From an uncultured bacterium (GTDB lineage Bacteria; Omnitrophota; Omnitrophia; Omnitrophales; Abzuiibacteriaceae), in assembly GCA_964387845.1 (NCBI GenBank), contig CAYLXA010000005.1, forward strand, positions 128,001 to 192,000: a stretch of 64,000 nucleotides of DNA, in the 5' to 3' direction. Position numbers and translations under genes: made by a program. Below the pieces are notes generated by a model. It was not told the origin of the DNA, ran no database searches, and saw nothing but the letters and a program-made list of their open reading frames with translations. Below are positions 1 to 50,162 of the stretch, piece by piece (within the stretch, counting starts at the first letter, position 1; each line of letters begins with the position of its first letter).

Positions 1-485
1 AGCCCTTTCTTATCTTTGCTTAAAGAAAGCCGTTCAAAAAGCAGGGAACCCTTTTGACGCTCCAATTCCCGGACTGACCAATTGTTTTTGACACATTCAA
101 TTTCATAAAAGGAGCGTGCCTCCGGTCGTTCGACGCGCATTAAAATCCGGTAATGTGTCCAGCTCAATTCGTGACGCAGTGCGTCACGAATTGGGAAGGT
201 AAGATAAAACTGACGAATATATCGCAAATTCGAATCATCAAAGCCTCTCCCAAAATCTCTTGTTAGTTTTTCCGAAAGCGACTTCAATAACGTCTCACCG
301 TAAGTGGCACGTTTTTGGCCTTTTTGTTCTTCTTCCACAATTTCACGGCCGATTAACCAATAGGCCTGCACCATTTCGGTGTTGACGGTACGCGCAATGT
401 TGGAACGTGCCGATTCTATGATCTGACGGATTTTGGAATAGACTTGGTCTTGCTTTGAGTTTTTCTTTTGAACTTCTTGCGGCAT
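1..485 (-). CDS. YhcG/DUF1016-family (PD-(D/E)xK nuclease-like) protein, N-terminal ~160 aa; gene continues beyond window start
   Basis: rc translation from ATG (483-485) with GGGAGGG RBS gives MPQEVQKK...VQAYWLIGREIVEEEQKGQKRATYGETLLKSLSEKLTRDFGRGFDDSNLRYIRQFYLTF..., matching the conserved DUF1016 N-terminal region; frame stays open to position 1, so it is missing from the ORF track. Confidence 0.6.
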   Translation of the reverse strand, partial: MPQEVQKKNSKQDQVYSKIRQIIESARSNIARTVNTEMVQAYWLIGREIVEEEQKGQKRATYGETLLKSLSEKLTRDFGRGFDDSNLRYIRQFYLTFPIRDALRHELSWTHYRILMRVERPEARSFYEIECVKNNWSVRELERQKGSLLFERLSLSKDKKG

Positions 486-789
486 GAGTAATTTGCCCTC
501 CCTTTTTTGGTAGCCCTTCCGCCTTTTGGCTTCAGGACGATGCTTCTAACTGCGTGAAGCATCGGGCAAATCACTTAATGTGGTGTCTTTATGCGATGAT
601 CGCAACCCTGTCCCAGCGCCACTTTGAAACAAAAACTTGTTTCTAATCAAAGCGCTGGACTGGACTCATTTCCTATAGACCGAACGGTTCCATTAATGAA
701 AATGAGTCCTGGTACTGCTTGATGCGAGAGTGAAGGATATCATATGTCCGGTCCGTATCAAAATGATTTTTTTCAGTTAAATTAATCCC

Positions 790-905
790 GAAAGGGTATA
801 TTTTATTAATTCGAGTTAAATATTATACCTTATAAGGTATAATATTTTTAAATTATACCAAAAAAGGTATAATATTTTACTAAAGTAGTTGATATTATAC
901 CCTTA
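790..905. promoter_or_regulatory. Three palindromic operator-like sites (AAATATTATACCT-n-AGGTATAATATTT and two variants) overlapping a sigma70-like promoter (TTGATA ... TGgTATACT) upstream of the hipB-like gene
   Basis: direct reading of inverted repeats at ~816-850, 851-878, 889-915. Confidence 0.5.
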
Positions 906-1145
906 ATGGTATACTATTCTGCCATGGATTACATTGGAGAAGAAATTCAAAATTTGCGTAAAAGAGCAGGGCTCACTCAACGAGAATTCGCGAAGCGAGT
1001 GGGTGTGGGGCTTAGATTTATTCGTGATCTTGAACAAGGAAAATCTACCGTACGGCTTGATAAGGTAAATCAGGTGCTTGAATTTTTAGGGCATCATTTG
1101 GAGATTGTTGCCAACCGTGAACGAAAAAATATTCAGAAAAGCTAG
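906..1145 (+). CDS. HTH XRE-family regulator, HipB-like antitoxin/repressor
   Basis: 79 aa with helix-turn-helix LTQREFAKRVGVGLRFIRDLEQG; first gene of three-gene hip-like operon. Confidence 0.7.
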   Translation: MVYYSAMDYIGEEIQNLRKRAGLTQREFAKRVGVGLRFIRDLEQGKSTVRLDKVNQVLEFLGHHLEIVANRERKNIQKS

Positions 1146-1461
1146 AGTTAACTACAAAGATGAACTTGCCGGTTATTTACAAGAAACCGAGAATGGTTTT
1201 CAATTTCTGTATGATGAAAATTATTTGCGTTCCGGCGGACAGCCAATTTCTGTGTCACTTCCTTTAACGAATGAGCCTTACGAATCAAAAGAGCTTTTTA
1301 GTTTCTTCCGCGGACTTTTGCCGGAAGGTTGGTACCTCGATATCGTGAGTGCGGCTAAGAAAATCGATACCAATGATTCTTTCGGCCTGCTTCTGGCTAC
1401 CACAGGCGACACGATCGGCGCAGTGACCGTATATCCAATCCGGGAAAGCGATGAGTCCTAA
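1105..1461 (+). CDS. HipS-like protein (stand-alone HipA N-terminal subdomain)
   Basis: 118 aa with HipA N-terminal/coupling-domain features (LPEGW, GxDxxGA); overlaps hipB 3' end and the downstream kinase gene start; alternative GTG start at 1114. Confidence 0.6.
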   Translation: MLPTVNEKIFRKARVNYKDELAGYLQETENGFQFLYDENYLRSGGQPISVSLPLTNEPYESKELFSFFRGLLPEGWYLDIVSAAKKIDTNDSFGLLLATTGDTIGAVTVYPIRESDES

Positions 1462-2311
1462 TCTGTTTGAAGAAATGTTTGGCACGAGCGAAGCTCCTAC
1501 AATCCCACTTTCGTTGAAGGATGTTCCTCTTCAAGCGCAAGTGATGGCGGGGTATATGTCCATTTCAGGGGTGCAGCCAAAATTGGTGCTGAAATTGGAT
1601 AAGCGTAAAAATGAGCTGACGGTGGCTCAGACGGATGGTGAATATATTTTAAAACCGCAAATCCCGCATTTCCCCCAGACGCCCGAAAATGAAAACTGCT
1701 GTATGGATATCGCTCAGGCGTTTGAGATTGAGGTGCCGCCCCATTGCCTTCTTCCACTGAAAGACGGAAGCCTGGCTTATGCGGTGAAGCGTTTCGATCG
1801 TGTGAGCGGCGAAAAAATCAATCAAGAAAGCTTTTATCAAATTCTTGAAAAAAGAGACAAATATATGGGCTCTCTGGAACAAATCGGTAACAGCCTGAAA
1901 CAAATTTCCGTAGTGCCGGGCCTGGATGTTCAGCTTTTCTTTGAATTAGTCGTTTTCAATTTTCTGATCGGCAATGGTGACGCGCATTTTAAAAATTACT
2001 CCATTTCTTATTTAAAGGATGGCATCCGGCTTTCTCCGGCCTATGATCTGGTTTGTTCCAAGCTGGTGATTCCGGGCGATTCGGATTCCGCACTCACGAT
2101 CAATGGCAAGAAGAATAATCTTAGGCGGGGCGATTTTGATGTGTTGGCTGCTTATTTAAAAATTCCGGAAAAGGTTCGTTACGATAAGTTTGCAGGTCAG
2201 CTTGGAAAAATGGAGCAATTGATTCGAGCCAGCCAACTCTCGGCAGATTTTAAAAAGACGTTTATTCAAATAGTTTCTTCACGTTTTGATCGGCTTAAAT
2301 TGGTGAATTAA
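1451..2311 (+). CDS. HipT-like Ser/Thr kinase toxin (HipA C-terminal kinase domain)
   Basis: 286 aa; Gly-rich loop MSISGVQPK (SIS motif) and catalytic GNGDAHFKNYS motif typical of HipA_C. Confidence 0.75.
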   Translation: MSPNLFEEMFGTSEAPTIPLSLKDVPLQAQVMAGYMSISGVQPKLVLKLDKRKNELTVAQTDGEYILKPQIPHFPQTPENENCCMDIAQAFEIEVPPHCLLPLKDGSLAYAVKRFDRVSGEKINQESFYQILEKRDKYMGSLEQIGNSLKQISVVPGLDVQLFFELVVFNFLIGNGDAHFKNYSISYLKDGIRLSPAYDLVCSKLVIPGDSDSALTINGKKNNLRRGDFDVLAAYLKIPEKVRYDKFAGQLGKMEQLIRASQLSADFKKTFIQIVSSRFDRLKLVN

Positions 2312-2339
2312 GCGCGCTGAGCCCGGCACGATTAGAACA

Positions 2340-2470
2340 GGTACCAAAACATTACAAAGTAGTTAATCTAATTTCCTTATATTCACAGTTAAAATATGTA
2401 TATTTATATACATATATATGTATTGAATAGTACATTTATATGTATATAATAATACATATTATATTTGACA
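2340..2470. promoter_or_regulatory. AT-rich region with several ATGTATAT..ATATACAT-type palindromes (candidate operators/promoter) upstream of an unknown two-gene module
   Basis: palindromes atgtatatttatatacat, acatatatatgt, tacatttatatgta read directly. Confidence 0.35.
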
Positions 2471-2480
2471 TTAACACTTT

Positions 2481-2909
2481 TTGAGGGTAGATTTTCTCGT
2501 ACCGGAGGAAGCTGAATATACTAGATTAGTCAAATTTATGACCGCGGCCGGCTATAAACAAGTGACAGGCTATGGTTGGCAGAAAAAAGGAGAGGCAATC
2601 ATTTTTGATCTTTATGTCGGTAATTCGGTTTATTCAACGGAATTATTGTCATCGCCGCTTGAAAAAGGCGGCCATCAGAAATTGAAGGAATGGAATAAAA
2701 TTTATTTAGGTGCTTTAAATCCGGTAGATCTGATTATTTCAAAAATGTTTCGCGGCAGCGAAGTGGATGTCCAGGACAGTTTAGCGTTACTCAAGCATGA
2801 GAAAATTAGTATTGAGGAATTAAAGAAACGATACATCAAAACAGCCAAATATGATGTAAGCGAAGACAGGGTATTGAAAAATTTAGATACATTACTCAGG
2901 AGGCTTTAA
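2481..2909 (+). CDS. hypothetical protein (TTG start); possibly nucleotidyltransferase/AbiE-like, unassigned
   Basis: 142 aa ORF, 3-nt gap to next gene (operon). Confidence 0.4.
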   Translation: MRVDFLVPEEAEYTRLVKFMTAAGYKQVTGYGWQKKGEAIIFDLYVGNSVYSTELLSSPLEKGGHQKLKEWNKIYLGALNPVDLIISKMFRGSEVDVQDSLALLKHEKISIEELKKRYIKTAKYDVSEDRVLKNLDTLLRRL

Positions 2910-2911
2910 TC

Positions 2912-3583
2912 ATGGATAAAAGTGATTTGTTGGACCAATTGGCTCAGCATGGCTATTCATTGATGAAGCCAAAATCAGCCGAGCCGGCCGAAAAACTGCT
3001 GGAGGCATTGCTGAAGCAGGATGATGCGCGTCTTTTGGAGGGCTTTCCGGTGGTGTTGGCCAACGCGTTTGACCAAAAAGACGGCTTGACGTGGGAAAAT
3101 CCTAAATGGAATGCTGAGGAATGGCAGGGAAAAAACAGAAGAAAATTGGTGGCCATGCTGTCTTTTAGTTATTATTTGTTTCGTTTATTTGGATTGGCGG
3201 AGTCTGAAAAGAAAGTTTTAGATTTGGTCAAGAAATTAAAAGGGGATAAAACGCTTCTTCATTTAACCGAATCTTTTGCGGAGTCCAAAGAAGTAGACTT
3301 GGACGGTGTCTCGCTATCAACGGAAAGATTAAAAAGCGCTTTCCGCCAATATGTATTAACGTCGGATCAAGGCGACGAAGTCGAAAAAAAGAAACGCGCG
3401 TTGGAATTAGAGCTGCTGCTTTCCGAACTGTTCAGCACGCGGCAAAAAGAACTGCTTGAGAAGCGGCTTGGTGGGGAGGAATTCACCAAAACAGAGCGTG
3501 AATACTATTACCGCGTCGTCAAAAAACGCTTGAAAGCGCTCGCGAGTGACGAACTTCACCAGATGGCCCGTTCGTTGGTTTAG
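2912..3583 (+). CDS. hypothetical protein (helical, coiled-coil-rich C-terminus)
   Basis: 223 aa ORF translationally coupled to preceding gene. Confidence 0.45.
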   Translation: MDKSDLLDQLAQHGYSLMKPKSAEPAEKLLEALLKQDDARLLEGFPVVLANAFDQKDGLTWENPKWNAEEWQGKNRRKLVAMLSFSYYLFRLFGLAESEKKVLDLVKKLKGDKTLLHLTESFAESKEVDLDGVSLSTERLKSAFRQYVLTSDQGDEVEKKKRALELELLLSELFSTRQKELLEKRLGGEEFTKTEREYYYRVVKKRLKALASDELHQMARSLV

Positions 3584-3595
3584 GGCGGGGGGTGT

Positions 3596-3628
3596 GGCTT
3601 GAAGCTTGAAGCTTGTAGCCTGCAGCCC
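3596..3628. repeat. tandem heptamer array (GCTTGAA GCTTGAA GCTTGTA GCCTGCA), family A intergenic element
   Basis: 7-nt periodicity read directly. Confidence 0.6.
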
Positions 3629-3647
3629 ACAATCCTATCCGCCGAGC

Positions 3648-3667
3648 CTTACCCCTTACCCCTAAGT
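3648..3667. repeat. heptamer half-element (TTACCCC)x2, inverted partner of 9827-9862
   Basis: CCTTACCCCTTACCCCTAAG; its reverse complement TAGGGGTAAGG recurs at 9826. Confidence 0.5.
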
Positions 3668-4014
3668 TTCAATCTGGACACAAAGCTTTTTGAGGCATAA
3701 ATCCTACTTAAATTGTGCCTGTACCTGTCCACCAAAATGATGCCTGGCACCTTTCTGTTAAGGATTCATATGCAACTCCTTTTTCCTGTAACATCAGGAT
3801 ATCAGGTGTTGCACTAGTAACTTGAACTCAAGCAGGTACCGAAGTAGAAATCCACTTCCTATCCGCTATACGTTGTTCGCGAACCAATAAAATAGTTGTT
3901 GAAATATAATATAAAGATTGTAAAATAATTACCTCACGCAAACAGTAAACCCCTCTCACGCCTTCACGCGCAAAATCAAACTAATTTCGTAATGCGTTCA
4001 CAAGAAAGGCGGAT

Positions 4015-4809
4015 TTGCCAATGAAAAAAGAAAAACTCATTTCTCAGAGGGATGGTTTACCAATTCGTTCAAGCGGTCCTTGGATCCGCAAAAAACATCA
4101 CTATTTAATCAGATATGCTGACATATTTACCCGAGGGATGAAGAACAAATGGGAATTGACGTACCTTGATCTTTTTGCCGGGCCCGGATGCTGCTTAATT
4201 GAGAAAGAGATGATCGAATTAGCCGGATCTCCGTTACTTGCATTAGGTTTTGATTTTAGGAAATACATTTTTATTGAACAGGATCATGATGACCTTGAAG
4301 CATTGAAACAGCGGTGCTCAAAATCACCAAAACTAAGCCAGATTCAATTCATAGAAGGGGATTGTAATAAGAATATTGATCAAATTCGATTGACGGGATT
4401 AACGCTGGCTTTTATCGATCCAACTGGTATTGACGTTCATTTTGAAACGATTAAACGACTCACCTCTTTAGGGCCGGTGGACCTGCTAATAAACATACCA
4501 TTTCACATTGATATCAAGCGCAACTTCACGAAGTATATAAAAACCCAACATAAAAAATTGGATCTCTTTCTTGGCGGTAAGGTACCGTGGGATAAATTGC
4601 ATCAAGAAAGGGATGTTTTAGAGTTATACAAAAAGCGAATAAAGGATTTGGGGTATCAAACCGTAGAATACAGCGACATAGTTGTCAGTAATACAAACAA
4701 AGTTCCTATGTACTTTCTTTTCTTTGCGTCCAAGCATTCGCGTGGTGTAGAATTCTGGAAGAAAATTACCAAGAAAGACGAAACCGGACAACTGGAGTTA
4801 GAACTCTAA
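4015..4809 (+). CDS. three-Cys-motif partner protein TcmP-like (class I SAM-MTase-like motifs)
   Basis: 264 aa; N-terminus matches TcmP family pattern; DLFAGPG (motif I-like) and FIDPTG (DPPY-like motif IV); immediately upstream of DUF5131 gene. Confidence 0.55.
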
Positions 4810-4811
4810 GA

Positions 4812-5570
4812 ATGAGCGATAAATCAAATATCGAATGGACCGACGCGACATGGAATCCGGTAACGGGATGCAATAAAATCAGCCCCGGATGTAAAAACTG
4901 CTACGCCGAAACTTTCGCTGAGCGCTGGCGGGGAATTCCGGGCCATCCCTACGAACAGGGTTTTGACCTCAGATTATGGCCTGAGCGTGTCGGCTTGCCA
5001 TTATCGTGGAAAGAGCCGCGGATGATTTTTGTCAATTCCATGTCTGATCTTTTTCATAAAGATGTTCCGGATGACTTTATAGGGAAAGTATTTGAAACGA
5101 TGCTCAAAGCTAATCAGCATACTTTCCAGGTTCTGACCAAGCGGCCTGAGCGCATGGTTGAATGGACCAAGAAAACATTCGGCAATCAAAAATTACCGCG
5201 TCATATCTGGCTTGGTGTTTCGGTTGAAAACCAGGATTACGTATGGCGAATCATGTATCTTCAGCAAACACCGGCTCAAATCCGTTTTCTTTCGGTTGAG
5301 CCTCTTTTGGGGCCTGTTGTTTTAAAATCTTCAAATTTAAAAGGCATTCATTGGGTGATCGTGGGTGGCGAGAGCGGACACAGAGCCCGTCCTATGAATC
5401 CCGACTGGGCGCGTGATATCCGCAATCAATGCGAAAAATATGGCGTCGCTTTTTTCTTCAAACAATGGGGCGCTTTTAACGCGAAAGGCGAACGCGTTGG
5501 TAAAAAAGCCGCCGGCCGGGTTCTCGACCGCAGAACCTGGAACGAAATGCCAATTACAATCCCCGCCTAG
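4812..5570 (+). CDS. DUF5131 / phage Gp37-Gp68 family three-Cys-motif protein
   Basis: 252 aa; [27 protein letters not shown] signature (C-x6-C-x2-C). Confidence 0.65.
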
Positions 5571-5593
5571 AATCCATCTCTCGTGGTTTAAAC

Positions 5594-5626
5594 GAGAAGC
5601 TTGTAGCCTGTAGCTTGCAGCTTATC
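5594..5626. repeat. tandem heptamer array (GAAGCTT GTAGCCT GTAGCTT GCAGCTT), family A
   Basis: read directly. Confidence 0.55.
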
Positions 5627-5744
5627 ATCATGATATAATTCCTATCGCGACGGCGCCCACATTGACCGCCGCGTGATGGCACTTGCGCCAGCGTTACCGC
5701 AGGTGCCTGCGAACGAAGTGACGCAGAATAAAGCGCAAGTGTCT

Positions 5745-6092
5745 ATGTCCGACATCAAGAAACTCACCGAAAAGATCAAGCAATTCCGCGACGAACGGGA
5801 TTGGAAGCAATTCCACAACCACAAAGATATGGCACTTTCACTTGTTCTTGAAGCCGCTGAACTTTTAGAACATTTCCAGTGGAAAACATTGGATGAAGTT
5901 GAAAAGCACGTGAAAACCTCAAAAGAGGATGTTTCAGATGAGCTTGGCGATGTCGCGATCTATCTTTTCGAGCTCGCCGATAACTTAGGGATAGACCTAT
6001 CAGAAGCGGTAGAAAGCAAGCTTCTTAAGAATGCCAGAAAATATCCTATACAAAAATCTAAAGGCACCATAACCAAGTACAATCAATTGTAA
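5745..6092 (+). CDS. MazG-like nucleotide pyrophosphohydrolase
   Basis: EHFQWK..E.ELGDV..YL..LA..LGIDL..A...KL.KN..KYP MazG signature; start taken at internal ATG 5745 (ORF track 5673). Confidence 0.65.
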   Translation: MSDIKKLTEKIKQFRDERDWKQFHNHKDMALSLVLEAAELLEHFQWKTLDEVEKHVKTSKEDVSDELGDVAIYLFELADNLGIDLSEAVESKLLKNARKYPIQKSKGTITKYNQL

Positions 6093-6099
6093 AGATTAA

Positions 6100-6876
6100 A
6101 TGCCCGGCAATGAATCTGCAGTAATAAAGTATTTGTTCAGAAATAAGAATCGTCTCGAGTTACCTCATTTAGGTTTAATAAAATCAATTGGGTTTCCAAA
6201 TGGACTCACAAATAACTACAAAGAAATAAAAAATGAAAATGAAATTTTAGAATGTTGCTCAGACAATGCTCGAAAAAAAGCAGATGTCTATATTAATGGG
6301 CAAGGCGTATCAATAAAACAATCAGGAGGAAGTTTTTCTTTTAATCGTTTGCAGCGTGCCGAGTTAATAGAAGTTTTTGCTAGTTTAATTTTTGATGCCC
6401 CTCATAATGTTTTAACTCAATTAGATAAAGAAGTTGAAAAATTTCATTTTGGAAAATTATCAGGACGTGGTAGGCCGTGGAAAGATTTTTTCTCAAATAA
6501 AGAATTTTATGCTTTAACAAATGCTCTTATGATGTTGCAATCTCCAAATTATGGACTTTCTCTTCATCCCGCTAAATTTATTCTGGAGGCTTCAAAAAAT
6601 TTAACAACCAATCCGAGTTTAAAAGTTTATACTTTTGATGAATATTTTGAACGTTATAACGAGTTTTTCAGGATTGCTATAAGACGTGTTTGGTTGGGGC
6701 AGAATAGTAAATCTGAGCATGGCCGTGCAAAAAGTCTAATAGCAAAACCTGAGAATGCAACCTGGGTCTTTAATACAATTTCCGGAACGCCAAGAAGTGG
6801 TTGGAAAGTTGATTTTCCAAAGTCGGAAAGAAGAACTGTGTATTATTTGATGATAGAAAAAGTAAATTCAAAATGA
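6100..6876 (+). CDS. hypothetical protein; candidate Type II restriction endonuclease of the adjacent vsr-dcm module
   Basis: 258 aa, low GC, 4-bp overlap with vsr; possible D...(V)SIK PD-(D/E)xK-like element; no family recognised. Confidence 0.35.
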   Translation: MPGNESAVIKYLFRNKNRLELPHLGLIKSIGFPNGLTNNYKEIKNENEILECCSDNARKKADVYINGQGVSIKQSGGSFSFNRLQRAELIEVFASLIFDAPHNVLTQLDKEVEKFHFGKLSGRGRPWKDFFSNKEFYALTNALMMLQSPNYGLSLHPAKFILEASKNLTTNPSLKVYTFDEYFERYNEFFRIAIRRVWLGQNSKSEHGRAKSLIAKPENATWVFNTISGTPRSGWKVDFPKSERRTVYYLMIEKVNSK

Positions 6877-7301
6877 CATTTGTATTTCAAACGACAAGTC
6901 AACGCTCCGAGTTAATGAAAAAGATTAAAGGAGTTAACACTAAGCCAGAAATTGCTTTTGCAAAGAAACTTGAATTATACAAAGTCAAGTTTAGAAAACA
7001 TTTTAAAAAACTCCCTGGAGTACCGGATTTTGCTATTTTGAGAGGTAGAGTAGCGGTGTTTATCGATGGGGAGTTTTGGCATGGATACAATTGGGTTAAT
7101 AAAAAGAAAAGGATAAGATCCAACCGACAATACTGGATTAAAAAAATAGAAAGAAATATACTAAGAGATTCGATAAATATGAGAGAATTAAAGAAAATAG
7201 GTTGGTATCCTTTAAGATTTTGGCAGCATGAAGTTGTTGCTGAGGGTGATAAATGTATAAAGAAAATCGAAAAAATAATGCAGCGACGAAGTTCAAAATA
7301 G
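6873..7301 (+). CDS. vsr: very-short-patch-repair endonuclease Vsr
   Basis: TSQRSELM...TKPE...FIDGEFWHG... conserved Vsr core. Confidence 0.8.
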   Translation: MTFVFQTTSQRSELMKKIKGVNTKPEIAFAKKLELYKVKFRKHFKKLPGVPDFAILRGRVAVFIDGEFWHGYNWVNKKKRIRSNRQYWIKKIERNILRDSINMRELKKIGWYPLRFWQHEVVAEGDKCIKKIEKIMQRRSSK

Positions 7302-8383
7302 CATCTTTTTTTGCTGGCTGTGGCGGCCTAGATTTAGGTTTCCAGCAAGCGGGCTTTGATGTTGTTTGGGCAAATGAATACGATAAAACAATTTGGGCTA
7401 CCTACGAACACAACCATCCTCATACGTTTTTATGCAAGAAATCTATTATCGATGTCAAATCAGATGAAATTCCAACTGTTGTTGGCATGATAGGTGGCCC
7501 GCCATGCCAAAGCTGGAGTTTAGCCGGAGCCATGAGGGGAGTAAAAGACCCGCGAGGTAAACTTTTTTATGAATACATAAGAATCTTGGCCGATAAACAA
7601 CCATCATTTTTCTTAGCCGAAAATGTTGCGGGCATTGTTTCTAGCACTCATGTGAATTCATTTGAAAATATCCTTAAAAAATTCGAAGAAATTGGTTACG
7701 TTACTTCATATAAATTGCTTGATGCAAAATCCTACGGCGTTCCTCAGGATCGGAAAAGAGTTATCATTGTAGGGTATTCTAAAGGTTTACATAAGAAATT
7801 TGAATTCCCGCAAGAAACTCATGGTGTAAATTCAGCGAATGGCGACTTATTCAAGCCACATTTAAAACCCTATGAAACTTTACGCTCTGCAATTGACGAT
7901 TTGCCTAATCCGGTGCCTGCTAGTTTGAAAAATAAGTCGAACAGCAGAATTCGTATTCCAAATCACGAATATATGACAGGAGGTTTTTCTACCATTTACA
8001 TGTCACGAAATAGGAGAAGAAATTGGAATGAGCCTTCATTTACAATTCAGGCGGGAGGCCGGCATGCACCGCTACATCCATCAAGCACTGAAATGATTAA
8101 AAAAGAGCCAGATTGGTGGGTATTTAAAAAGAAAGACAAAAAGGCTTATCGGCGAATGTCGGTAAGAGAATGCGCACGAGTTCAAACCTTCCCTGATAAA
8201 TTCATATTCAAATATGATTCAATTGCGGATGGTTATAAAATGGTTGGTAATGCAGTTCCCGTCGAGTTGGCGCGTGTTATAGCATTAAGAATAAAGTCAG
8301 ATTTGATACCAGAGAAAAATAATCTTAAAAGATCATCCCTTCGCAAAACACCCTATTCCGAATTGGTGTTAGCTTCCTCATAA
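7253..8383 (+). CDS. dcm: DNA (cytosine-5)-methyltransferase
   Basis: motif I FAGCGG, motif IV GGPPCQSWS, ENV motif VI, C-terminal target-recognition region. Confidence 0.85.
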   Translation: MYKENRKNNAATKFKIASFFAGCGGLDLGFQQAGFDVVWANEYDKTIWATYEHNHPHTFLCKKSIIDVKSDEIPTVVGMIGGPPCQSWSLAGAMRGVKDPRGKLFYEYIRILADKQPSFFLAENVAGIVSSTHVNSFENILKKFEEIGYVTSYKLLDAKSYGVPQDRKRVIIVGYSKGLHKKFEFPQETHGVNSANGDLFKPHLKPYETLRSAIDDLPNPVPASLKNKSNSRIRIPNHEYMTGGFSTIYMSRNRRRNWNEPSFTIQAGGRHAPLHPSSTEMIKKEPDWWVFKKKDKKAYRRMSVRECARVQTFPDKFIFKYDSIADGYKMVGNAVPVELARVIALRIKSDLIPEKNNLKRSSLRKTPYSELVLASS

Positions 8384-8424
8384 ACCGTAAACTGGACACC
8401 GTCCGGCAGAAAAAAGGTTGTTGA

Positions 8425-9540
8425 ATGAGGCAAATATTCATAGTAGTGGCAGGAGGCAATGCTGCTGCTGATCGTCACTTCGAAGATACAATCCAACGTA
8501 AACGTACCTTAGATGAAGTGCGGCAATTTCTATCTTCCCAAGAAATTCATGAGATCGAATCAGTTTATCATACAGCACCTTTTATTGTCTGGGGCGCTAT
8601 TCCCGGCCCAATGAATATTCCGCGTTGGCAAAGTATGCGTGTTGGCGATATTGTTTTGATTTACACAAGAGGACATATCCGATTAATTGGCGAAGTGGCA
8701 TCAAAAGTAAGAAGTAATTCGTTGGCTCGCTATTTTTGGAAAGAAACACCCGAAAACAAAACCTGGGAATTGATTTATTTTATTGTAAATGAACAAAGGG
8801 TAAATATACCGATGCCTTTATTAAATGAAGCGCTTGGTTATAGCGCAAGTTACTCTCCGAGGGGATTTAGTTCTGTCGATTCTGATAAGGTCAAATCATT
8901 CGTTAATCGTTATGGCGATATATTCGAAGGGCTTAAAACACTCAGTAAAGGCGAGAAACTAATCGAAATTTCGCCAGCGAAAAAGTTAGAAGTCCAACAG
9001 GTTGAAGAAAAGATTGAACAATCATCGAATGAGCATGACGAAATGCAATGGCGGTTAATTAGATTGGGCAAATTGTCAAGGTACGATGTTTGGGTTCCCA
9101 GAAATGATCAAGGGCACAGCTTTGGAGGTCAACGATTTCGGGATTTTGTGTTGCCGGAATTCCACGAGAGTTTAGATGTTCCACCCAGTATTAAAAATAT
9201 CGATGTCGTGTGGAAATTTGGTCCTTATTCGATCACATCTGCATTTGAAGTCGAACATTCAACATCCGTTTATTCAGGAATTTTAAGGCTTTCGGATCTG
9301 AGAACCGAAACACCGAATTCACAATACCCACTTTTTATTGTTGCTGACGAAGCAAGAAAGCGGAAGGTATTTTCGGAACTTGCGCGCCCCACTTTCTCAA
9401 ATCCCTTTTTGCGACTTCACGAAGTAATACGATTTTTGAGTTACGAAAGAATCAGGGACATTGATGAAAAGTATAAGCAAGAACCTGAATTTGAACCGCA
9501 AATACTCTTTACTGCCGGAGAAACTTTCGAGAAAAATTAA
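8425..9540 (+). CDS. hypothetical protein with EVE/PUA-like N-terminal domain and putative PD-(D/E)xK-like C-terminal nuclease domain (candidate modification-dependent restriction enzyme)
   Basis: VGDIVLIYTRGHIRLIGEVASKV resembles EVE core (VGDLVFFYHS..IVGIAEV); C-terminal DVWVP...IDVVWKFGP...AFEVEHS pattern. Confidence 0.4.
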   Translation: MRQIFIVVAGGNAAADRHFEDTIQRKRTLDEVRQFLSSQEIHEIESVYHTAPFIVWGAIPGPMNIPRWQSMRVGDIVLIYTRGHIRLIGEVASKVRSNSLARYFWKETPENKTWELIYFIVNEQRVNIPMPLLNEALGYSASYSPRGFSSVDSDKVKSFVNRYGDIFEGLKTLSKGEKLIEISPAKKLEVQQVEEKIEQSSNEHDEMQWRLIRLGKLSRYDVWVPRNDQGHSFGGQRFRDFVLPEFHESLDVPPSIKNIDVVWKFGPYSITSAFEVEHSTSVYSGILRLSDLRTETPNSQYPLFIVADEARKRKVFSELARPTFSNPFLRLHEVIRFLSYERIRDIDEKYKQEPEFEPQILFTAGETFEKN

Positions 9541-9729
9541 CAAATCGAGGATCTTATCATGATTAAATCAAGAAAATTGAAGGCTGATCTAACCCAGTTA
9601 TTAAATTATCTTTGGCATGACGAGAGAAAACATTATTTGGAGCGGCGAAACAAGAATCATATTTATTTAACAATTCGCAGATTGGCAAAAGAAATTAGTT
9701 ATAAGCCGTAAATCGAACGCGTCTCGACG

Positions 9730-9840
9730 ATGTGCGGAAGATATTCATTAACCCTCGATAAAAAGAAACTCCTCGCGGAATTCGCGCCCGAGCCCCGCGC
9801 CCACAAATTTCTTGATTTCCATTATAGGGGTAAGGATTAA
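9730..9840 (+). pseudogene. 5' fragment of a SRAP (YedK/HMCES, DUF159) gene: MCGRYSLTLDKKKLLAEFAPEPRAHKFLDFH then out-of-family tail and stop
   Basis: MCGR N-terminus with catalytic Cys2 is the SRAP hallmark; only ~31 family-like codons. Confidence 0.55.
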
Positions 9841-9862
9841 GGGGTAAGTCGTAAGTTTTAAG
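9827..9862. repeat. heptamer half-element GGGGTAA GGATTAA GGGGTAA GTCGTAA GTTTTAA, inverted partner of 3648-3667
   Basis: 7-nt periodicity; reverse complement of 3648-3667 motif. Confidence 0.5.
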
Positions 9863-9936
9863 TAGAATTATGCTGATAGTCATACCCCATCCCTCCTAAA
9901 CATTCCCCTTGAACATGTTGTAGTTATGTACTACAA

Positions 9937-10533
9937 TTGTTGTACATCATGACAACAAGTTTAATCTTTCAGCTCCAGCAAACCAAGTCGCCGCTCAGGA
10001 AGAAGCTTTTATCGTACTTCTTCACGAATCCCGGGGCGAAGCTCTATCTCAGAGATATCGCGCTCAAACTCCATGTCGATCCCGCGAATCTTTCGCGCGA
10101 GCTCAAGCGGCTCACCGATGAAAGTGTTTTTGTTGCCCAGAAGCAGGGTAATCTCAAATATTTCTCTTTGAATCCAAAGCACGCCTTATATGAAGAATTT
10201 AAGTCCATGATTTTTAAGACCATCGGCGCTCAAGGCGCGATTGAAAACCTGTTAAGTAAAATCCCGGGAATTAAACGCGCTTTTATTTATGGTTCGTTTG
10301 CCAAAAATACGGAGCGTGCGGATTCCGATATCGACCTTTGTATGATCATCCAAAAAAAAGAATTCAAAGAAAATCCTTTCCTTGAGGGAATTCATAAACT
10401 CGAAGGTGAACTTGGCAGGGAAATCAATTATACTTTCTTTACCGACGAAGAATGGCAGTCCAAGCAGCGATCTAAAGATAGCTTTGTCACCGGAATTCTT
10501 AAGAATAAAAAAATCGATCTCATGCATATATGA
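9937..10533 (+). CDS. minimal nucleotidyltransferase (MNT) with N-terminal winged-HTH, antitoxin-like partner of HEPN
   Basis: AFIYGSFAKNTERADSDIDLCMI NTase motif; wHTH N-terminus; ATGA overlap with next gene. Confidence 0.75.
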   Translation: MLYIMTTSLIFQLQQTKSPLRKKLLSYFFTNPGAKLYLRDIALKLHVDPANLSRELKRLTDESVFVAQKQGNLKYFSLNPKHALYEEFKSMIFKTIGAQGAIENLLSKIPGIKRAFIYGSFAKNTERADSDIDLCMIIQKKEFKENPFLEGIHKLEGELGREINYTFFTDEEWQSKQRSKDSFVTGILKNKKIDLMHI

Positions 10534-10994
10534 AAAAAATTGATCTTCAAGATTTAATTCAAGAAGGGCAGCTTCAAGAAGAGCCAGGTATCGGCTGGGA
10601 CCAGGTGGAGCGTTTAATTAAACGGGCATTTGAAGATTTGAAATCAGCCGACCGGAACATGTCCTTTGATGAGCCGGGCGCGATGGATTTTATCTATAAG
10701 GCGATGTTTCATGCTGGGAACGCTTTGATTCGTTCATATGGGTTTAGGCCGGGCGCTACCAGACAGCATCAAGGTGTGATTACGGCAGTTGGGCGGATCT
10801 TGGGCGTTGAATCAAAGGCGCTGATTCTGAAATTTGATAAACTCAGGAAACGCCGCAATGAGTTTGAATATCAGGGCATTTTTGCGATGGGAAGAGAAGA
10901 GTTGAAAGATTCCATCGAACAAGCCAAACAATTGGTTGGCGTGATACGAAAAGCACTCGAAGATTCTCATCCACAAAAGCAGTTTAAATGGTAA
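10530..10994 (+). CDS. HEPN-domain protein (putative toxin of MNT-HEPN pair)
   Basis: 154 aa helical protein with KRRNEFEY R-x4-6-H-like motif; genetic coupling to MNT. Confidence 0.55.
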   Translation: MKKIDLQDLIQEGQLQEEPGIGWDQVERLIKRAFEDLKSADRNMSFDEPGAMDFIYKAMFHAGNALIRSYGFRPGATRQHQGVITAVGRILGVESKALILKFDKLRKRRNEFEYQGIFAMGREELKDSIEQAKQLVGVIRKALEDSHPQKQFKW

Positions 10995-11024
10995 GCGAAG
11001 ACCATAAAGACGGCGCCGGGCACC

Positions 11025-11107
11025 TGCTACTCATTAACACTCGATAAAAAGAAGCTCCTCGCGGAATTCGCGACGAACCCCGCGCCCACAAATTTCTTGA
11101 TCTCCAT
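11025..11107 (+). pseudogene. second SRAP 5' fragment (CYSLTLDKKKLLAEFATNPAPTNFLISI), start codon lost
   Basis: ~77-bp direct repeat of 9745-9823 at ~90% identity. Confidence 0.5.
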
Positions 11108-11315
11108 CAAAGTTATATATACTATTCACCATAGTAAATAAGCATTAACCCCCTCCTCGCTCAAAGTATTAAATTCTCCAAGCTTCCTCCACATAAAGTC
11201 TCTTTTTTCACTTGCGCTTTATGCGCAAGTACCATCTCTCGAGGCTCAAAGTTAGCCTCGTATTGCTAGGCCGCGTAAACTATGGTTGACACTGTGTAGC
11301 ATATAGGGTACACTT

Positions 11316-11645
11316 ATGATGACTTGGAAAATTTTGCATTACCGGAGGCGCGACGGAAGGATTCCTTTCCAAGAATGGTTTTCCGAATTTTACGATGCTC
11401 GGGTTTGCGCTAGAATTCAATCACGGATTCACAGGTTAGAGCGTGGTAACTTTGGAGATTCAAAGAGCGTAGGTGATGGGCTCTTCGAGTTACGATTTCA
11501 CTTTGGGCCCGGCTATCGCATTTATTATGGAATTCGTCACGGCCGGATTGTTATTTTGCTTTGCGGGGGCGACAAAAGTAGTCAGCAAAAAGATATTCAA
11601 ATAGCAAACGTATATTGGCAGGATTATTTGGAGAGTCAACTATGA
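11316..11645 (+). CDS. RelE/ParE-superfamily addiction-module killer protein (HigB-like, Gp49 family)
   Basis: GDGLFELRFHFGPGYRIYYG...ILLCGGDKSSQQKDI signature. Confidence 0.75.
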   Translation: MMTWKILHYRRRDGRIPFQEWFSEFYDARVCARIQSRIHRLERGNFGDSKSVGDGLFELRFHFGPGYRIYYGIRHGRIVILLCGGDKSSQQKDIQIANVYWQDYLESQL

Positions 11646-11953
11646 GACGATATAAACCGTATGTAGATCATCAGGAATGGTTGTTGAAATCATTAAAGGA
11701 TCCTGAGATGGCTTCTGAATATCTAAATGCCGTGCTAGAAGAGGGTGATAAGCAATTATTTTTGATGGCACTCAAAAATGTGGTGGACGCGCAAGGTGGG
11801 ATGACAAAGATGTCGGATAAATCTAAAATCAATCGTGTGAGCCTTTACAAAATGCTCTCAAAGAACGGAAACCCCGGCTTTGAAAATATTTTGAGATTAC
11901 TTCAAATTGCCGGCATTCGTTTTCGGGTGACACCGCAATCTCGTAGGAAATAA
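11642..11953 (+). CDS. addiction-module antidote protein (HigA-like HTH)
   Basis: FLMALKNVVDAQGGMTKMSDKSKINRVSLYKMLSKNGNPGFENILRLLQIAGIRF matches antidote family; start at ATG 11642 overlapping toxin stop. Confidence 0.7.
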   Translation: MRRYKPYVDHQEWLLKSLKDPEMASEYLNAVLEEGDKQLFLMALKNVVDAQGGMTKMSDKSKINRVSLYKMLSKNGNPGFENILRLLQIAGIRFRVTPQSRRK

Positions 11954-12154
11954 TTGCTGCACACTCACGCTTGATGCGTGAGTGCTAAATCCGTAGAGAA
12001 ACCACAAGTTTCTCACGGATAATACTTGCACATAGGTGCAAGTGCATCCGCGCGGCGTGGTTGACAATCCACACCTAATTCTGTATGATACTTCATCGGT
12101 GCACGAAGTATTGAATTACAGATGTAAAACCCACCGATTAGTTCAATTAATCCA

Positions 12155-12297: not shown

Positions 12298-13458
12298 ATG
12301 AGCGAGTGGATCGGACGAGATAGAAAAGCAAGGCGTGCATACGGTTTTGATGAAATTGCGTTGTCCCCCGGAAATCTGACCATTAATCCCGACGAAGTTG
12401 ACATCAGTTTTTATATCGATAAAAAGAAATTCGAAATTCCGTTTATTGCCTCCGCGATGGACGGTGTGGTGGATCCTAAGTTCGCGGTCGCGATGGGCAA
12501 AATGGGCGGCCTCGCGGTGCTTAATCTCGAAGGCATCTACACCCGCTACGACAATTATCAAGAAATCTTAGACGATATTGCCAAAGCCACGCCTGAAAAA
12601 GCCACTGAGCTGGTTCAGAAACTCTACGTGGAACCGGTCAAAGAAAAACTAATCTCAAAACGCATTCAGGAAATCAAGAAAGCCAAAGTACCTGCCGCTG
12701 TGAGTTCCATTCCGCAAAAAGCGGAGAAGTACGGCAAAATCGCCGAAGAAGCCGGCTGTGATGTGTTTGTGGTTCAATCGACCGTCACCACGGTTCGCCA
12801 CATCGCGAAAGCGTACAAAACCCTCGAATTCGAAAAGTTCTGCAAAGCGATGAAGATTCCCGTCATTCTCGGAAATTCCGTGACGTATCAAGTGGCGGTT
12901 GAACTCATGACGGCCGGCGCGGACGGACTCTTAGTCGGCATCGGTCCGGGATCGGCTTGCACGACCCGCGGCGTGTTGGGCCTCGGTGTTCCGCAGGTGA
13001 CCGCGATTTGTGATTCCGCAGCCGCGCGCGAATTTTATTACAAAAAGTCAGGACGCTACGTTCCGATCATCGCAGACGGCGGTATGTCCACGGGCGGCGA
13101 TATTTGCAAAGCATTCGCTTGCGGATCTGATGCCGTGATGGTGGGTTCCGCTTTTGCCCGCGCCAAGGAAGCGCCGGGGAAGGGATTCCATTGGGGCATG
13201 GCCACACCGCACGCCAATTTGCCGCGCGGCACACGCATTCGCGTCGGCACGACGGGAACTTTGCAGGAAATTATGTTCGGCCCCGCGAAATTGGATGACG
13301 GCACGCAAAATTTAGTCGGCGCACTTAAAACCTGCATGGGCAACATCGGCGCCCGCACGGTCAAGGAAATGCAAATGGCCGAAATCGTGATTGCGCCTGC
13401 GATTAAAACGGAAGGAAAGCTCTTTCAAGCGGCTCAAAAAGTTGGAATGATGAAATAA
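12298..13458 (+). CDS. IMP dehydrogenase/GMP reductase-family protein lacking CBS subdomain (GuaB-like)
   Basis: catalytic loop [20 protein letters not shown]; 386 aa, no CBS pair. Confidence 0.8.
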
Positions 13459-13468
13459 CTTAATATTC

Positions 13469-13543
13469 GGGCTTCATGCTGCATGCTACAAGTTACAAGC
13501 TGCAGGTTTGAAGCTTGGAGCCTGAAGCCTGTAGCTTTGAAAC
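13469..13543. repeat. heptamer-periodic palindromic element (CATGCTG CATGCTA CAAGTTA CAAGCTG / TTTGAAG CTTGGAG CCTGAAG CCTGTAG), family A
   Basis: read directly. Confidence 0.6.
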
Positions 13544-15101: not shown

Positions 15102-15231
15102 AGTTTAGCGGTTAGCGAATAGCGTTTAGCGCATAGAAAAACAAACGAGACCATTTTTGTGAGAACTCATTTTTATTCTTTTCATTTTGTTTTTTCAGTT
15201 ATACGCTATCCGCTAGACGCTATACGCTAAT
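15102..15231. repeat. heptamer hairpin element, family B: TTTAGCG GTTAGCG AATAGCG TTTAGCG ...65-nt spacer... TATACGC TATCCGC TAGACGC TATACGC
   Basis: read directly. Confidence 0.6.
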
Positions 15232-15235
15232 AGTT

Positions 15236-18200
15236 ATGGATCATCATTCTGATTTTGTCCATCTGCATTGCCACACGCAGTATTCGCTTTTAGACGCTGC
15301 TTCCAAAGTCGAAGAGCTCGTGAAGCGCGCGGCCGACCTCAAATTTCCCGCGCTTGCGATGACCGATCACGGCAATTTGTTTGGCGCGATCGAATTTTAC
15401 GAAAAAGCCATGAAGGCGGGCGTCAAACCCATCATCGGCATGGAAGCCTACATCGCGCCGCGCTCACGCTTCGATAAATCCGCGCACGGCGTCAAAGAAG
15501 CATCGTTTCACATCACTCTGCTCGTTAAAAACGAAGTCGGCTACCGCAATCTTCTCAAATTATCTTCCGCGGCGTACCTCGAAGGTTTTTACTATCGCCC
15601 CCGGATCGATAAAGAAATTCTCAAGAAACACTCAGAAGGCCTGATCGCGCTTTCCGGATGCCTCAAAGGCGAAGTGCCGTACTATTTATGGAATGACCAG
15701 CCGCAGGAATCCAAACGCGCCATCAAGGAATTTATCGATATTTTCGGCCGTGACGATTTTTACTTGGAATGCATGAATCAGGGCATTGAGCAGCAGCGCC
15801 GCGTGGTGAATGAATACCTGAAACTCTCCAAAGAATTCAAGCTCAAGATGGTGGCGACGAATGATTGCCATTACATTTATCAGAAAGATGCGCAATCGCA
15901 CGACGCCTTGATTTGTATCGGTACGGGGTCGCTTATTTCCGATGAGGACCGTATGCGTTATCACGGCGATAACTTTTATTTGAAATCCGCGGATGAAATG
16001 AAGGAGCTCTTCAAAGAGTTGCCGGAAGCTGTTTTGGAAACGCGCGCCATTGCGGATAAATGTAACTTGGAACTCGATTTCTCAAAAACGCACTTGCCGG
16101 CTTTTAAACCACCGGCAGGGCAATCGCAAAAGGAATATTTGCGTTCACTTTGCTTTAAATTGCTCGCTAACCGGTTTTCCGGCGAAATTCCGAAGCAATA
16201 CGACGAGCGGCTCCGTTTTGAGCTGGCGCTTATCGAAAAAATGGGGTTCGTCAGTTACTTTCTCGTCGTGTGGGATTTTATCCGCTTCGCGAAGGAAAAA
16301 AAGATTCCGGTCGGGCCGGGACGCGGTTCGGCGGCCGGCAGTTTGGTGGCTTACGCACTCGGCATCACGAATTTGGATCCCATCGAACACGGCCTCATTT
16401 TTGAACGTTTCCTCAATCCAGAACGTATTTCGATGCCGGATATCGATATCGACTTTTGTTATGAACGCCGCGACGAAGTGATTGCCTACGTGCGCGAAAA
16501 ATACGGCGAAGAGAGCGTTGCGCAAATCATCACGTTCGGAACGATGGCGGCACGCGCCGCACTGCGCGATGTGGGACGTGTGATGGGCCTCAGTTATCAA
16601 GATGTCGATAAAATCGCGAAAATGGTGCCGATACAGCTTGATATGACACTCGAAACCGCGCTTGAAGTCGAGCCGCGCATGAAGCAGCTTGCCAAATCCG
16701 ACCCGCAAGTCGGTCAACTTATCGAAACCTCGAAAGCCTTGGAAGGCCTTGCACGCCATGCTTCTACGCACGCGGCCGGTGTTGTGATCTCGGAAGGGCC
16801 TCTGTCGGATCATTGCCCGCTTTTTAAAGCGGATGATGTGATCACAACGCAATACGACATGAAAGCCGTCGAGAAAATCGGCCTTCTCAAAATGGACTTT
16901 TTGGGATTGCGCACGCTGACCGTGATTGACGAAGCAGTGCGGCTGATTGAAAAAACACGCGGCGTGAAAATCGAAATCGATTCACTCAAGCTCGAAGATA
17001 AAGCGACTTATGAATTGCTCGGCCACGGCGAATCCATCGGCGTGTTCCAGCTTGAAAGTTCGGGCATGCGCGACCTGCTGAAAAAAATGAAACCGAAAGT
17101 ATTTGGCGACATTGTGGCTTTGCTTGCGCTTTATCGTCCGGGGCCTTTGGGCAGCGGCATGGTCGATGATTTTATTCAGCGCATGCACAACCCCAAGCTC
17201 ATCAAGTATGACCACCCGGCCTTGGAGCCCATTTTGCGTGAAACGTACGGCATTATTTTGTATCAAGAGCAGGTCATGCAGATTGTGAGCACGCTCGCGG
17301 GATTCTCGATGGCAAAAGCCGATTCCTTAAGGCGCGCGATGGGTAAGAAAATCCCGGAAATCATGGAAAAGGAAAAAGAATCATTCCTGAAAGGCGCCGG
17401 CGACAACGGTATTCAGCCGCGCATTGCGGAAAAAATTTGGAACCTGATCGAATATTTCTCAGGGTACGGCTTCAATAAATCACATTCGACCGCCTACGCC
17501 TACATTTCCTATCAGACAGCTTATTTGAAAGCAAACTATACTGTCGAATTCATGACCGCGCTGCTCACGTCGGAAAAAGACAACACGGACAAAATCGTCC
17601 GCTACATTGACGAATCCAAGCGGCTCGGCCTTCAGGTGACGCCGCCTTCTATTAATGAAAGCTTCTCTGTCTTTACCTGTGTCGGAAATGTGATTTGCTT
17701 CGGGCTTTCGGCGGTGAAAAATGTGGGCACGACGGCGGTGGAGTCTATCATCGAAACCCGCAGCGAGAAGGGGAAGTTCAAGTCGCTTGTCGATTTTGTG
17801 GAACGCGTGGATCTGCGCGTCTGCAACCGGAAAGTGCTTGAAAGCTTGATTAAATGCGGCGCTTTTGACGGTTTCAAATTAAAACGCTCACAAATGATGG
17901 CGATGGTGGACCGTCTTTTGGAAATCGGTGCTAAAACGCAGAAGGACCGGTCAAAAGGTCAACTCTCACTTCTTGATCAGTTGGATTCAAGCGACGGTTT
18001 CAAAGAACATATGCATGACGCGCCCGACATTGAAGAATGGCCGGAAAATGAATTGCTCGCGCACGAACGTGAAATGCTCGGGTTTTTCGTGAGCACACAT
18101 CCTTTGGCACGTTTCGAGAATGTGTTGAAAACTTATGCGTCAACGACCACGGCGAACTTAAATGACTTGAGCGACCAAGCCGGTGTTTCAATGGGCGGCA

Positions 18201-33355: not shown

Positions 33356-33592
33356 ATGAAAGTATTGTCGCTTAAATTAAGAGATGATGTGTTTGACGAA
33401 GTCGAGCAAGTAATCAAAAAAAACAATATGCCGCGTAACGCGTATATTAATGAGGCGCTCATTTTTTTCAATCAGTTAAACAAGCGGAAATGGATGAGAA
33501 AAAAACTGCAGAAGGAGTCTCTCTTGACGCGGGGGGTTTCCATGGAAGTACTGCGTGAAATGGAAAAGTTAGAAGACAGCTTGGATTCATGA
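33356..33592 (+). CDS. MazE/RHH-type antitoxin candidate
   Basis: 78 aa, upstream of and 4 nt from mazF-like gene. Confidence 0.5.
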   Translation: MKVLSLKLRDDVFDEVEQVIKKNNMPRNAYINEALIFFNQLNKRKWMRKKLQKESLLTRGVSMEVLREMEKLEDSLDS

Positions 33593-33596
33593 AATC

Positions 33597-33938
33597 ATGA
33601 AAATCGAAAAGTTTCATATCTACTTAACCGATCTTAATCCGCAAATCGGGACCGAGCCCGGAAAAATCAGGCCGGTCACCGTGATTCAAACCAACCTGTT
33701 AAACAATACCCATCCCAGCACGATTATTTGCCCGATGACGACCAAAGTGGTCAGGCAGGCAAGGATTTTAAGGGTTCATGTTTCTTCTGCTGAATCGGGA
33801 CTGAACACAGCTTCTGATATCCTGGTAGATCAAATTCGGGCTATTGATAATCGGCGGCTTAGGAAACATATTGGAAAGCTGACCTCCCCGCAGGCGAAAG
33901 AGCTTCTGGCCAATCTTAAACTTTTAATCTTAGAATAA
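33597..33938 (+). CDS. MazF/PemK-family endoribonuclease toxin
   Basis: IYLTDLNPQIGTEPGKIRPVTVIQTN...ICPMTT pattern. Confidence 0.8.
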   Translation: MKIEKFHIYLTDLNPQIGTEPGKIRPVTVIQTNLLNNTHPSTIICPMTTKVVRQARILRVHVSSAESGLNTASDILVDQIRAIDNRRLRKHIGKLTSPQAKELLANLKLLILE

Positions 33939-36025: not shown

Positions 36026-36035
36026 ACTGGAAAAT

Positions 36036-48125: not shown

Positions 48126-48127
48126 TC

Positions 48128-48212: not shown

Positions 48213-48259
48213 GGGAAGAAACAGAATTCGGCTTATGCCGAGAAAAGCCTCTCTTTTTT

Positions 48260-50138: not shown

Positions 50139-50162
50139 ATGCCTCTTCCCGAATAACGAGCC

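Follow-up and report, generated by a model that had tools for sequence, protein, structure and literature searches.

Two fragments of a SRAP gene start bracket a predicted MNT-HEPN toxin-antitoxin module in an Omnitrophota genome and probably record its insertion

We analyzed a 64,000-nucleotide stretch of contig CAYLXA010000005.1 (positions 128,001 to 192,000), from the genome assembly GCA_964387845.1 of an uncultured Omnitrophota bacterium, hereafter the window. Near its left end, a predicted toxin-antitoxin (TA) module of the MNT-HEPN type, a nucleotidyltransferase gene followed by a HEPN gene, lies between two imperfect direct repeats that both derive from the 5' end of a SRAP (yedK-like) gene. 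This arrangement is very probably the scar of an insertion that left the 5' end of the target gene in duplicate. As to the way in which the module arrived, our tentative preference, held with a little less than even confidence, goes to an integrase-free import that was anchored by homology on one side, closed by a single illegitimate joint on the other and followed by decay.

The two repeats occupy positions 9742–9827 (copy 1, R1) and 11028–11112 (copy 2, R2) and are 87–91% identical, with a single 1-bp indel that divides them into two blocks, 9742–9795/11028–11081 (87%) and 9789–9827/11074–11112 (90%) in the repeat search; blastn aligns 9742–9822 with 11028–11107 at 91.4% identity. A previous reading of this DNA, made from the sequence only, had placed direct repeats of ~77 bp and ~90% identity at 9745–9823 and 11031–11107, on either side of the MNT-HEPN pair. 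Both statements are borne out, as the MNT gene (9949–10533) and the HEPN gene (10530–10994), identified by Pfam, are situated between the copies. A search of both strands of the window for a 33-nt core pattern of the repeat gave exactly two occurrences, against none in 100 dinucleotide shuffles, and neither the pattern search nor blastn detected a third copy on either strand of the window. That the copies diverge at the same point, as had also been remarked, is trivially true for the end of any repeat; what stands of this remark is that SRAP-like sequence follows neither of them. The DNA after copy 1 shows no homology to that after copy 2 (11113–11290).

Copy 1 (fragment 9730–9840, plus strand; Pfam, nucleotide alignment) is the better preserved gene start. 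It opens with ATG TGC GGA AGA TAT, translated as MCGRYSLT, and possesses the Met1 and the catalytic nucleophile Cys2 of the MCGR start that characterizes the SRAP family (PF02586). It is colinear with intact SRAPs over 32 codons, to position 9825, after which four unrelated codons lead to a TAA stop. The closest intact SRAPs, P0015 and P0007, retrieved with the protein of the related locus L002 as query, start MCGRYSLTVDKKKLLGEF/DEF, and R1 shares 16 of 18 N-terminal residues with them; in the nucleotide alignment, the colinearity ends within the conserved RYNIAP motif, directly behind its Tyr. The Pfam SRAP profile is matched at its positions 1–21 only (E = 0.029; 14.3–14.9 bits versus a cut-off of 27.1), a sub-threshold score due to the shortness of the fragment. 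Copy 2 (fragment 11010–11112, plus strand; alignments), whose well-conserved part starts at 11028, reads ACC TGC ------ TAC at the place of the first five codons of R1. The earlier assignment of the first ~31 SRAP codons to both repeats holds in full for copy 1 only: copy 2 has lost the start codon and 6 nt and carries in addition a 1-nt deletion in codon 20.

A complete SRAP domain of ~210 residues scoring above the Pfam gathering threshold is found in neither copy. The remainder of the gene, already reported as missing from the window, was not detected by tblastn or by alignment with shuffles, either after the two copies or elsewhere in the window, and the SRAP gene is therefore dead here: both copies are pseudogene fragments. 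Two candidate traces of further SRAP coding were rejected. The frame of copy 2 (..NPAPTNFLISI) had suggested a kept 'NIAPTQ' motif, whereas it is the frame of copy 1 that is colinear with intact SRAPs over 32 codons; and a decayed continuation that might follow copy 2 (YTIHHSK) gave an alignment without significance. Relatives of the repeat peptide were absent from pattern scans of viral and metagenome contigs, and a 41-residue query gave no candidate in the protein collection. An intact SRAP gene does exist near this locus in a relative, as the previous reading had proposed to check: in L002 (PCVY01000053) it is located 3.9 kb upstream of the same IMPDH-like and guaA genes that follow the repeats in the window. 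The view, expressed in that reading, that the repeats are SRAP 5' fragments marking the insertion of the MNT-HEPN pair is supported. The closest intact SRAP genes (L161, 10001–12627; L163, 1752–4379) are the first genes of an operon that continues with an S24 peptidase (LexA/UmuD-like) and a Y-family polymerase, and in L161 this operon is followed by an E2/ThiF/patatin (CBASS-like) cluster.

By its sequence, the pair between the repeats is a predicted TA module. The first gene (9949–10533, plus strand) encodes a 194-residue MNT antitoxin-type nucleotidyltransferase with an N-terminal DNA-binding (winged-helix/helix-turn-helix, HTH) domain (Pfam Polbeta, E = 4e-10; NTP_transf_2, E = 1e-8) and a GSx10DxD motif at residue 115. 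The second gene (10530–10994, plus strand), which overlaps the first by 4 nt, encodes a 154-residue HEPN toxin-type protein (PF05168, E = 1.9e-8) whose Rx6H motif is RPGATRQH (residues 73–80). The sequence features expected of a HEPN/MNT TA pair, namely adjacent genes, a GSx(9–13)DxD motif and an Rx4–6H motif, are present. The signature FRPxxxxQH recurs in the open reading frame (ORF) translations of the few related modules that were read (L096, L125, L128, L134, L139 and L160). The module has its own promoter, TTGAAC-17-TACAAT (9909–9937, plus strand; promoter scan), which overlaps a palindrome resembling an operator. With the nearest related loci, L081 and L082, DNA homology begins at 9907/9908, and with L081 it stops at 10995 (blastn), so that the conserved unit comprises 9908–10995 only, from promoter to stop codon. 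Conservation in another clade of the module likewise extends from the −35 box, which forms its left edge, to the stop codon.

The spacer between R1 and the module promoter (9826–9908, plus strand; TRF, repeat search) opens with a 14-nt tandem unit (ATTATAGGGGTAAGG, 9821–9848) of the heptamer-repeat type present elsewhere in this genome; a hairpin in this spacer is not significant (z = −0.5). A phage or plasmid source of the module was also rejected, with no phage match and with the nearest plasmid-borne relatives at most 33% identical. Among characterized systems, the type VII TA pair HepT/MntA has the same adjacent and overlapping MNT and HEPN genes and the same GSx10DxD and Rx6H motifs; compared with this system (PMC7641770, PMC11586414), the predicted module of the window differs by the N-terminal winged helix of its MNT protein and by having the MNT gene first.

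The same architecture is found repeatedly around this module family, which is not SRAP-specific. A metagenome scan with the MNT protein gave 80 loci, 50 of them with adequate flanks, and for these the 450 nt upstream of each pair were compared with the 480 nt downstream. An imperfect direct repeat brackets the pair in 19 of the 50, with scores of 26–179 versus ~8–17 for the controls, the few high-scoring controls being additional copies of the same repeat families. The repeats are 44–266 nt long (one of 30 nt) and 74–97% identical, they represent ~14 independent types by sequence, and no pair is identical. Such variable lengths speak against an enzyme that cuts with a fixed stagger. As a rule the right copy begins 0–34 nt after the HEPN stop codon, and in L132 the two copies also end at the same point. 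Some of the repeats are gene starts: that of L120 is the 5' end of a vsr gene (confirmed by Pfam), with the two vsr fragments ending ~12 codons apart, and that of L160 is the start of a 221-residue gene. Others are intergenic or non-coding, and the non-coding repeats display no frame-specific pattern.

The gene repeated in L160 is part of an extended, three-gene form of the module, made up of MNT, HEPN and a 220-residue protein without Pfam family (L134, 731–2757; L136, 1998–4024; L160, 209–2207). In L134 and L136 a 68-nt repeat, unlike that of L160, brackets the entire three-gene unit; L160 has, upstream of the module, a fragment of the third gene's 5' end. As this gene lies inside the bracketed unit in L134 and L136, its status as an independent target in L160 is doubtful. 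In two lineages the bracketing repeat is a conserved, multicopy intergenic element of 140–180 nt, with copies 78–87% identical, placed ahead of many unrelated same-strand genes at a spacing of 0.6–5 kb (family A: L113, L121, L127, L138 and L148; family B: L100, L102, L112, L125 and L149); this element, which may be a promoter module, a MITE-like repeat or a recombination site, lacks a consensus fold and matches no Rfam family.

Comparable scars also accompany other cargos. Loci chosen solely for the IMPDH-like gene, 1.28 Mb in all, contain 13 comparable repeat pairs, which provide the background. Three of these are informative. In L061 (14868–17483), guaA is followed by a 107-nt fragment of the purC 5' end, then by a restriction-modification insert composed of a small ORF, an N6/N4 methylase and an MjaI-type endonuclease, and finally by an intact purC. 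The closest relative of L061, L067, has the empty site, in which guaA and purC are separated by 54 nt (12812–12866). In L040 (11689–12776), a dnaE 5' fragment is located upstream of the intact dnaE, beside a GIY-YIG nuclease gene, the duplicated start being 73 nt long and 89% identical. Repeats also surround MazEF-like and HigBA-like pairs in L028.

The differences between coding copies are mostly synonymous. In the SRAP frame, the two copies of the window are separated by five substitutions, four synonymous and one non-synonymous, besides the lesions of copy 2. The synonymous to non-synonymous counts are 11:1 in L061, 4:0 in L040, 7:0 in L160 and 6:5 in L120, which makes 32:7 for the five loci with the window included, whereas only 24–36% of random single changes are expected to be synonymous. 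An orphan fragment left by a local duplication should gather mostly non-synonymous changes; since the opposite is observed, the copies look like the 5' ends of functional genes from two lineages, joined by recombination. This suggestion is weak in the window and strong in L061, where the functional copy (R2) is closer to the purC of L067 (89.7%) than to the orphan R1 (86.9%), and where R1 is as divergent as the guaA gene beside it (86.0% versus 86.3%). A simple duplicated attachment site, as the sequence-only reading described the two copies, does not agree with this pattern.

These features are consistent with the following course of events, whose order and anchored-recombination mechanism we infer. 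A minimal self-regulated MNT-HEPN module, running from promoter to stop codon and devoid of any mobility gene, would have been imported on DNA of a related lineage in which it was already inserted directly upstream of the SRAP gene. On the right side of the incoming DNA, homologous recombination inside the shared SRAP gene would have served as the anchor, and on the left the incoming end would have been sealed by an illegitimate joint near codon 32 of the resident gene. The process would correspond to homology-facilitated illegitimate recombination or, equivalently, to a Campbell-type insertion-duplication. The promoter-proximal 5' end of the resident gene would thereby have been stranded on the left, as R1, with its start still intact, and that of the donor gene would have come to lie on the right, as R2, originally continuous with the gene body. 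The gene body would later have been lost and R2 would have decayed, with the HigBA-like pair now following it. Such a model has no need of a recombinase and admits repeats of any length and sequence.

Several points weigh against this homology-anchored import. The two SRAP fragments share their end point, codon 32, and no SRAP sequence continues them; a later deletion would have to begin no more than ~30 nt away from the first joint, a coincidence of roughly 5%, and the alternative of a truncated fragment already shared by both lineages fits poorly with a divergence that is synonymous only. Decay is less advanced in R1, which the model takes for the resident orphan, than in R2. The start of R2 at 0–34 nt after the HEPN stop codon, seen in many loci, requires one assumption more, namely that selection favors expression of the downstream gene by read-through. 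In the window itself, the synonymous excess (p ~0.01–0.06) rests on five substitutions. Finally, no donor or empty-site genome of the species was found, the HEPN and IMPDH-like proteins of the window being absent from the contig collection, and the metagenome scan did not yield relatives of the repeat peptide.

The main competing explanation is a site-specific accretion mobilized in trans, in which a tyrosine or serine recombinase encoded elsewhere in the genome or since lost would act, as for the integrase-less cis-mobilizable elements (CIMEs) flanked by att sites, on small circles carrying a surrogate SRAP 5' end with a crossover core near codon 32. Two integrations would produce the order R1-cargo1-R2-cargo2, and a third copy, continuous with the SRAP body, would have been deleted later. 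This is the simplest account of two fragments that break off at one and the same codon and are then followed by different DNA; surrogate gene ends borne by an element also predict mostly synonymous differences, each copy does stand ahead of its own self-promoted TA pair, and L132 too has two copies with a common end point. Direct repeats derived from the end of a target gene, as at the attL and attR sites of integrative elements, are indeed what R1 and R2 provide. The serial integration put forward in the sequence-only reading, however, would call for another copy of the repeat joined to the SRAP body beyond the HigBA-like pair, and neither such a copy nor the body was found. Members of one element family should also share one target, whereas relatives of this module are bracketed by unrelated repeats, such as the vsr 5' end or intergenic sequences, without a common core, so that many specificities would be needed; the lengths of 44–266 nt and the ~12 codons that separate the ends of the vsr fragments in L120 are further difficulties. 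No terminal inverted repeats or shared junction motif were seen in related modules, and no tRNA genes at the borders of related loci. Nor was an integrase detected: as the same reading had noted for the window, no recombinase-like ORF was recognized in the 64 kb (Pfam on the island ORFs, reading of all ORFs), and tblastn gave no XerD- or Hin-like match in the window or in 165 fetched loci, in a search of limited reach that used these two queries and no positive control. On the whole we disfavor the accretion model and rate it below the homology-anchored import, yet as a serious competitor. Transposition does not agree with the data, since related modules show no conserved ends, the repeats vary from 44 to 266 nt and are never identical where a short, fixed-length and identical duplication is expected, and no transposase lies beside the module in the window.

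An in situ duplication, through repair of a long staggered break or template switching during replication, would have generated identical copies that then decayed by ~9%. The identities, spread roughly evenly over 74–97%, and the variable lengths are those expected of decaying duplicates, the non-coding repeats lack any frame-specific pattern, and copy 2 bears three disabling lesions. The coding repeats nevertheless differ mainly at synonymous positions (32:7; 11:1 in L061), although an orphan would be free of constraint, the functional copy of L061 is nearer to the orthologue of another genome than to its supposed duplicate, and none of the ~14 independent pairs is identical; all this makes a duplication in place improbable. 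An assembly artefact, in which the SRAP 5' ends of two strains were merged as alleles into a single contig of a metagenome-assembled genome (MAG), could be imagined for an uncultivated Omnitrophota whose sequence probably stems from a metagenome, the more so as allelic copies would differ synonymously. Both junctions, however, are unique sequence, without a shared k-mer to mislead the assembler, the indels and the lost start codon of copy 2 are unexpected in a live allele, and the architecture is met again in numerous independent assemblies and projects, so that this explanation is highly implausible. We give still less credit to the repeat as a functional cis element, an attC-like site, small RNA or leader, accompanying each cassette. 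Each copy is indeed upstream of a TA operon, and some metagenome lineages have the 140–180-nt element ahead of many same-strand genes in arrays; against this, the copies fold no better than shuffled sequences (z = 0.0 and −1.4), contain no RYYYAAC/GTTRRRY pair and have no Rfam match at the gathering threshold, both operons have their own promoters, and the sequence is plainly a SRAP coding start.

The arrangement can be set beside several known routes of gene acquisition. Integrative elements carry a surrogate gene end, and integrase-less CIMEs accrete in tandem, as described for the ICESt3/CIME type. There, as here, non-identical gene-end repeats flank the cargo, the arrays share a crossover point and the stranded fragment decays; in our case, however, no integrase was found in the element, the window or the related loci, the cargo measures only 1.1 kb, and the target varies from locus to locus and is not restored. 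Campbell-type insertion-duplication is known from suicide plasmids that carry a 5' gene fragment, and its product has an identical architecture, in which a truncated copy next to the promoter is followed by the insert and then by a copy that has the start but lacks a promoter; a natural source of a 1.3-kb circle with 120 nt of the target was not found. Integron cassettes resemble the module as small same-strand cassettes, often TA pairs, between similar repeats of 60–140 nt. The repeat of the window differs in being the start of a coding gene, and an attC reading was rejected: the repeats have no fold (DNA folding z = 0.01 and −1.36), the multicopy family has no consensus structure (−2 kcal/mol), no attC boxes (RYYYAAC...GTTRRRY; R''/L''-L'/R') were seen in the repeat sequence, no Rfam match at the gathering threshold was obtained in the repeat region, and no IntI is encoded among the window ORFs, none of which is recombinase-like.

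A close parallel in mechanism is the displacement of Rhs C-terminal regions and the orphan immunity arrays of the Vibrio type VI secretion system (T6SS); a process comparable to the one we favor was put forward as the origin of orphan arrays at Rhs and T6SS loci (PMC5361080). In both cases, according to these proposals, a conserved segment would anchor the incoming DNA and the other end would be joined illegitimately, leaving a repeated fragment of a conserved gene beside each module, without a recombinase and with fragments that would originate from different strains. The present loci differ in that the repeat is taken not from the toxin gene but from the 5' end of a housekeeping or repair gene unrelated to it, that the cargo is a complete TA or restriction-modification operon, and that the target gene is outside the system; the mechanism here is a proposed one.

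The scar is embedded in a low-GC island that covers bases 1–12000 (33–47% GC versus 47–52% in the core) and whose genes, all on the plus strand, belong to TA and defence systems. These include an HTH gene with a split HipA (906–2311), a DUF6036 nucleotidyltransferase, a DUF5131 protein and a MazG-like gene. To the left of R1 lie a Vsr gene (6873–7301; Pfam Vsr, E = 9e-20), a C5 cytosine methyltransferase (Dcm) gene (7253–8383; Pfam DNA_methylase, E = 8e-90) and a 371-residue ORF without Pfam family, which may encode a restriction enzyme (8425–9540). A 50-residue ORF without Pfam family (9559–9711, plus strand) ends with a TAA stop 18 nt ahead of the SRAP ATG. Between R2 and the next module, a non-coding stretch (11113–11285) contains two short hairpins discerned by eye, one of them terminator-like on the minus strand, while the consensus scan listed no terminator site there. 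The second TA module, of the Gp49/HI1420 (HigBA-like) type (11286–11953, plus strand; Pfam, promoter scan), consists of a promoter, TTGACA-17-TACACT (11286–11314), a Gp49/HigB-like toxin gene (11316–11645; Pfam Gp49, E = 1.7e-7) and an HI1420-type antitoxin gene (11642–11953; Pfam dnstrm_HI1420, E = 3.7e-19). The right edge of the island is formed by a conserved promoter (12061–12089, plus strand; promoter scan), 39 nt of this zone (12078–12116) being conserved with L001. The core genome then resumes with the IMPDH-like gene (12298–13458, plus strand; Pfam IMPDH), whose product is up to 87% identical to proteins of Omnitrophota MAGs, and with guaA.

Two further TA pairs, recognized by eye, lie in the core, a PemK-like one at 33356–33938 and a PIN-like one at 48451–49076, and an ORF of at least 1233 residues runs off the right end of the window (60300–64000). 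Heptamer-periodic tandem repeats made of varied 7-mers (AGTGGTA/ACTTACA, TATACGC/TAGCGTA, GCTTGAA and others) are scattered between genes across the window, usually as inverted pairs (13470–13537, 15199–15237, 35902–36034, 47695–48250, 49110–49170, 50159–50232, 53025–53102, 54254–54282 and 58416–58475). Two such pairs lie inside the RNase P RNA gene, which measures 556 nt against a model of 367 positions; they recall the short tandemly repeated repetitive (STRR) heptamers found in helix P12 of cyanobacterial RNase P RNA.

Taken alone, the feature of the window is a decayed pseudogene scar without evident present function. Its recurrence around one TA family and around restriction-modification cargo is a variant of the att-type gene-end duplications and of anchored displacement, of which we found no description in the literature searched. 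TA modules are called mobile and usually lack mobility genes, and the mode of their insertion is poorly documented. With due reserve, we consider it possible that this module is an integrase-free mobile cassette, as other small cargos of defence genes, restriction-modification pairs among them, probably would be too, and that it is propagated between related genomes by one-sided homologous capture beside a conserved gene or by RecA-dependent excision and re-integration through its diverged flanking repeats. If so, each move would leave behind a two-lineage duplicate of the 5' end of a neighbouring gene, and such scars would form a general, readable record of the movement of TA and defence genes in uncultivated phyla. 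Their features would offer a testable footprint for the recombinase-independent spread of addiction and defence genes, a process that would also inactivate or rewire host genes, such as the SRAP gene for abasic-site repair.

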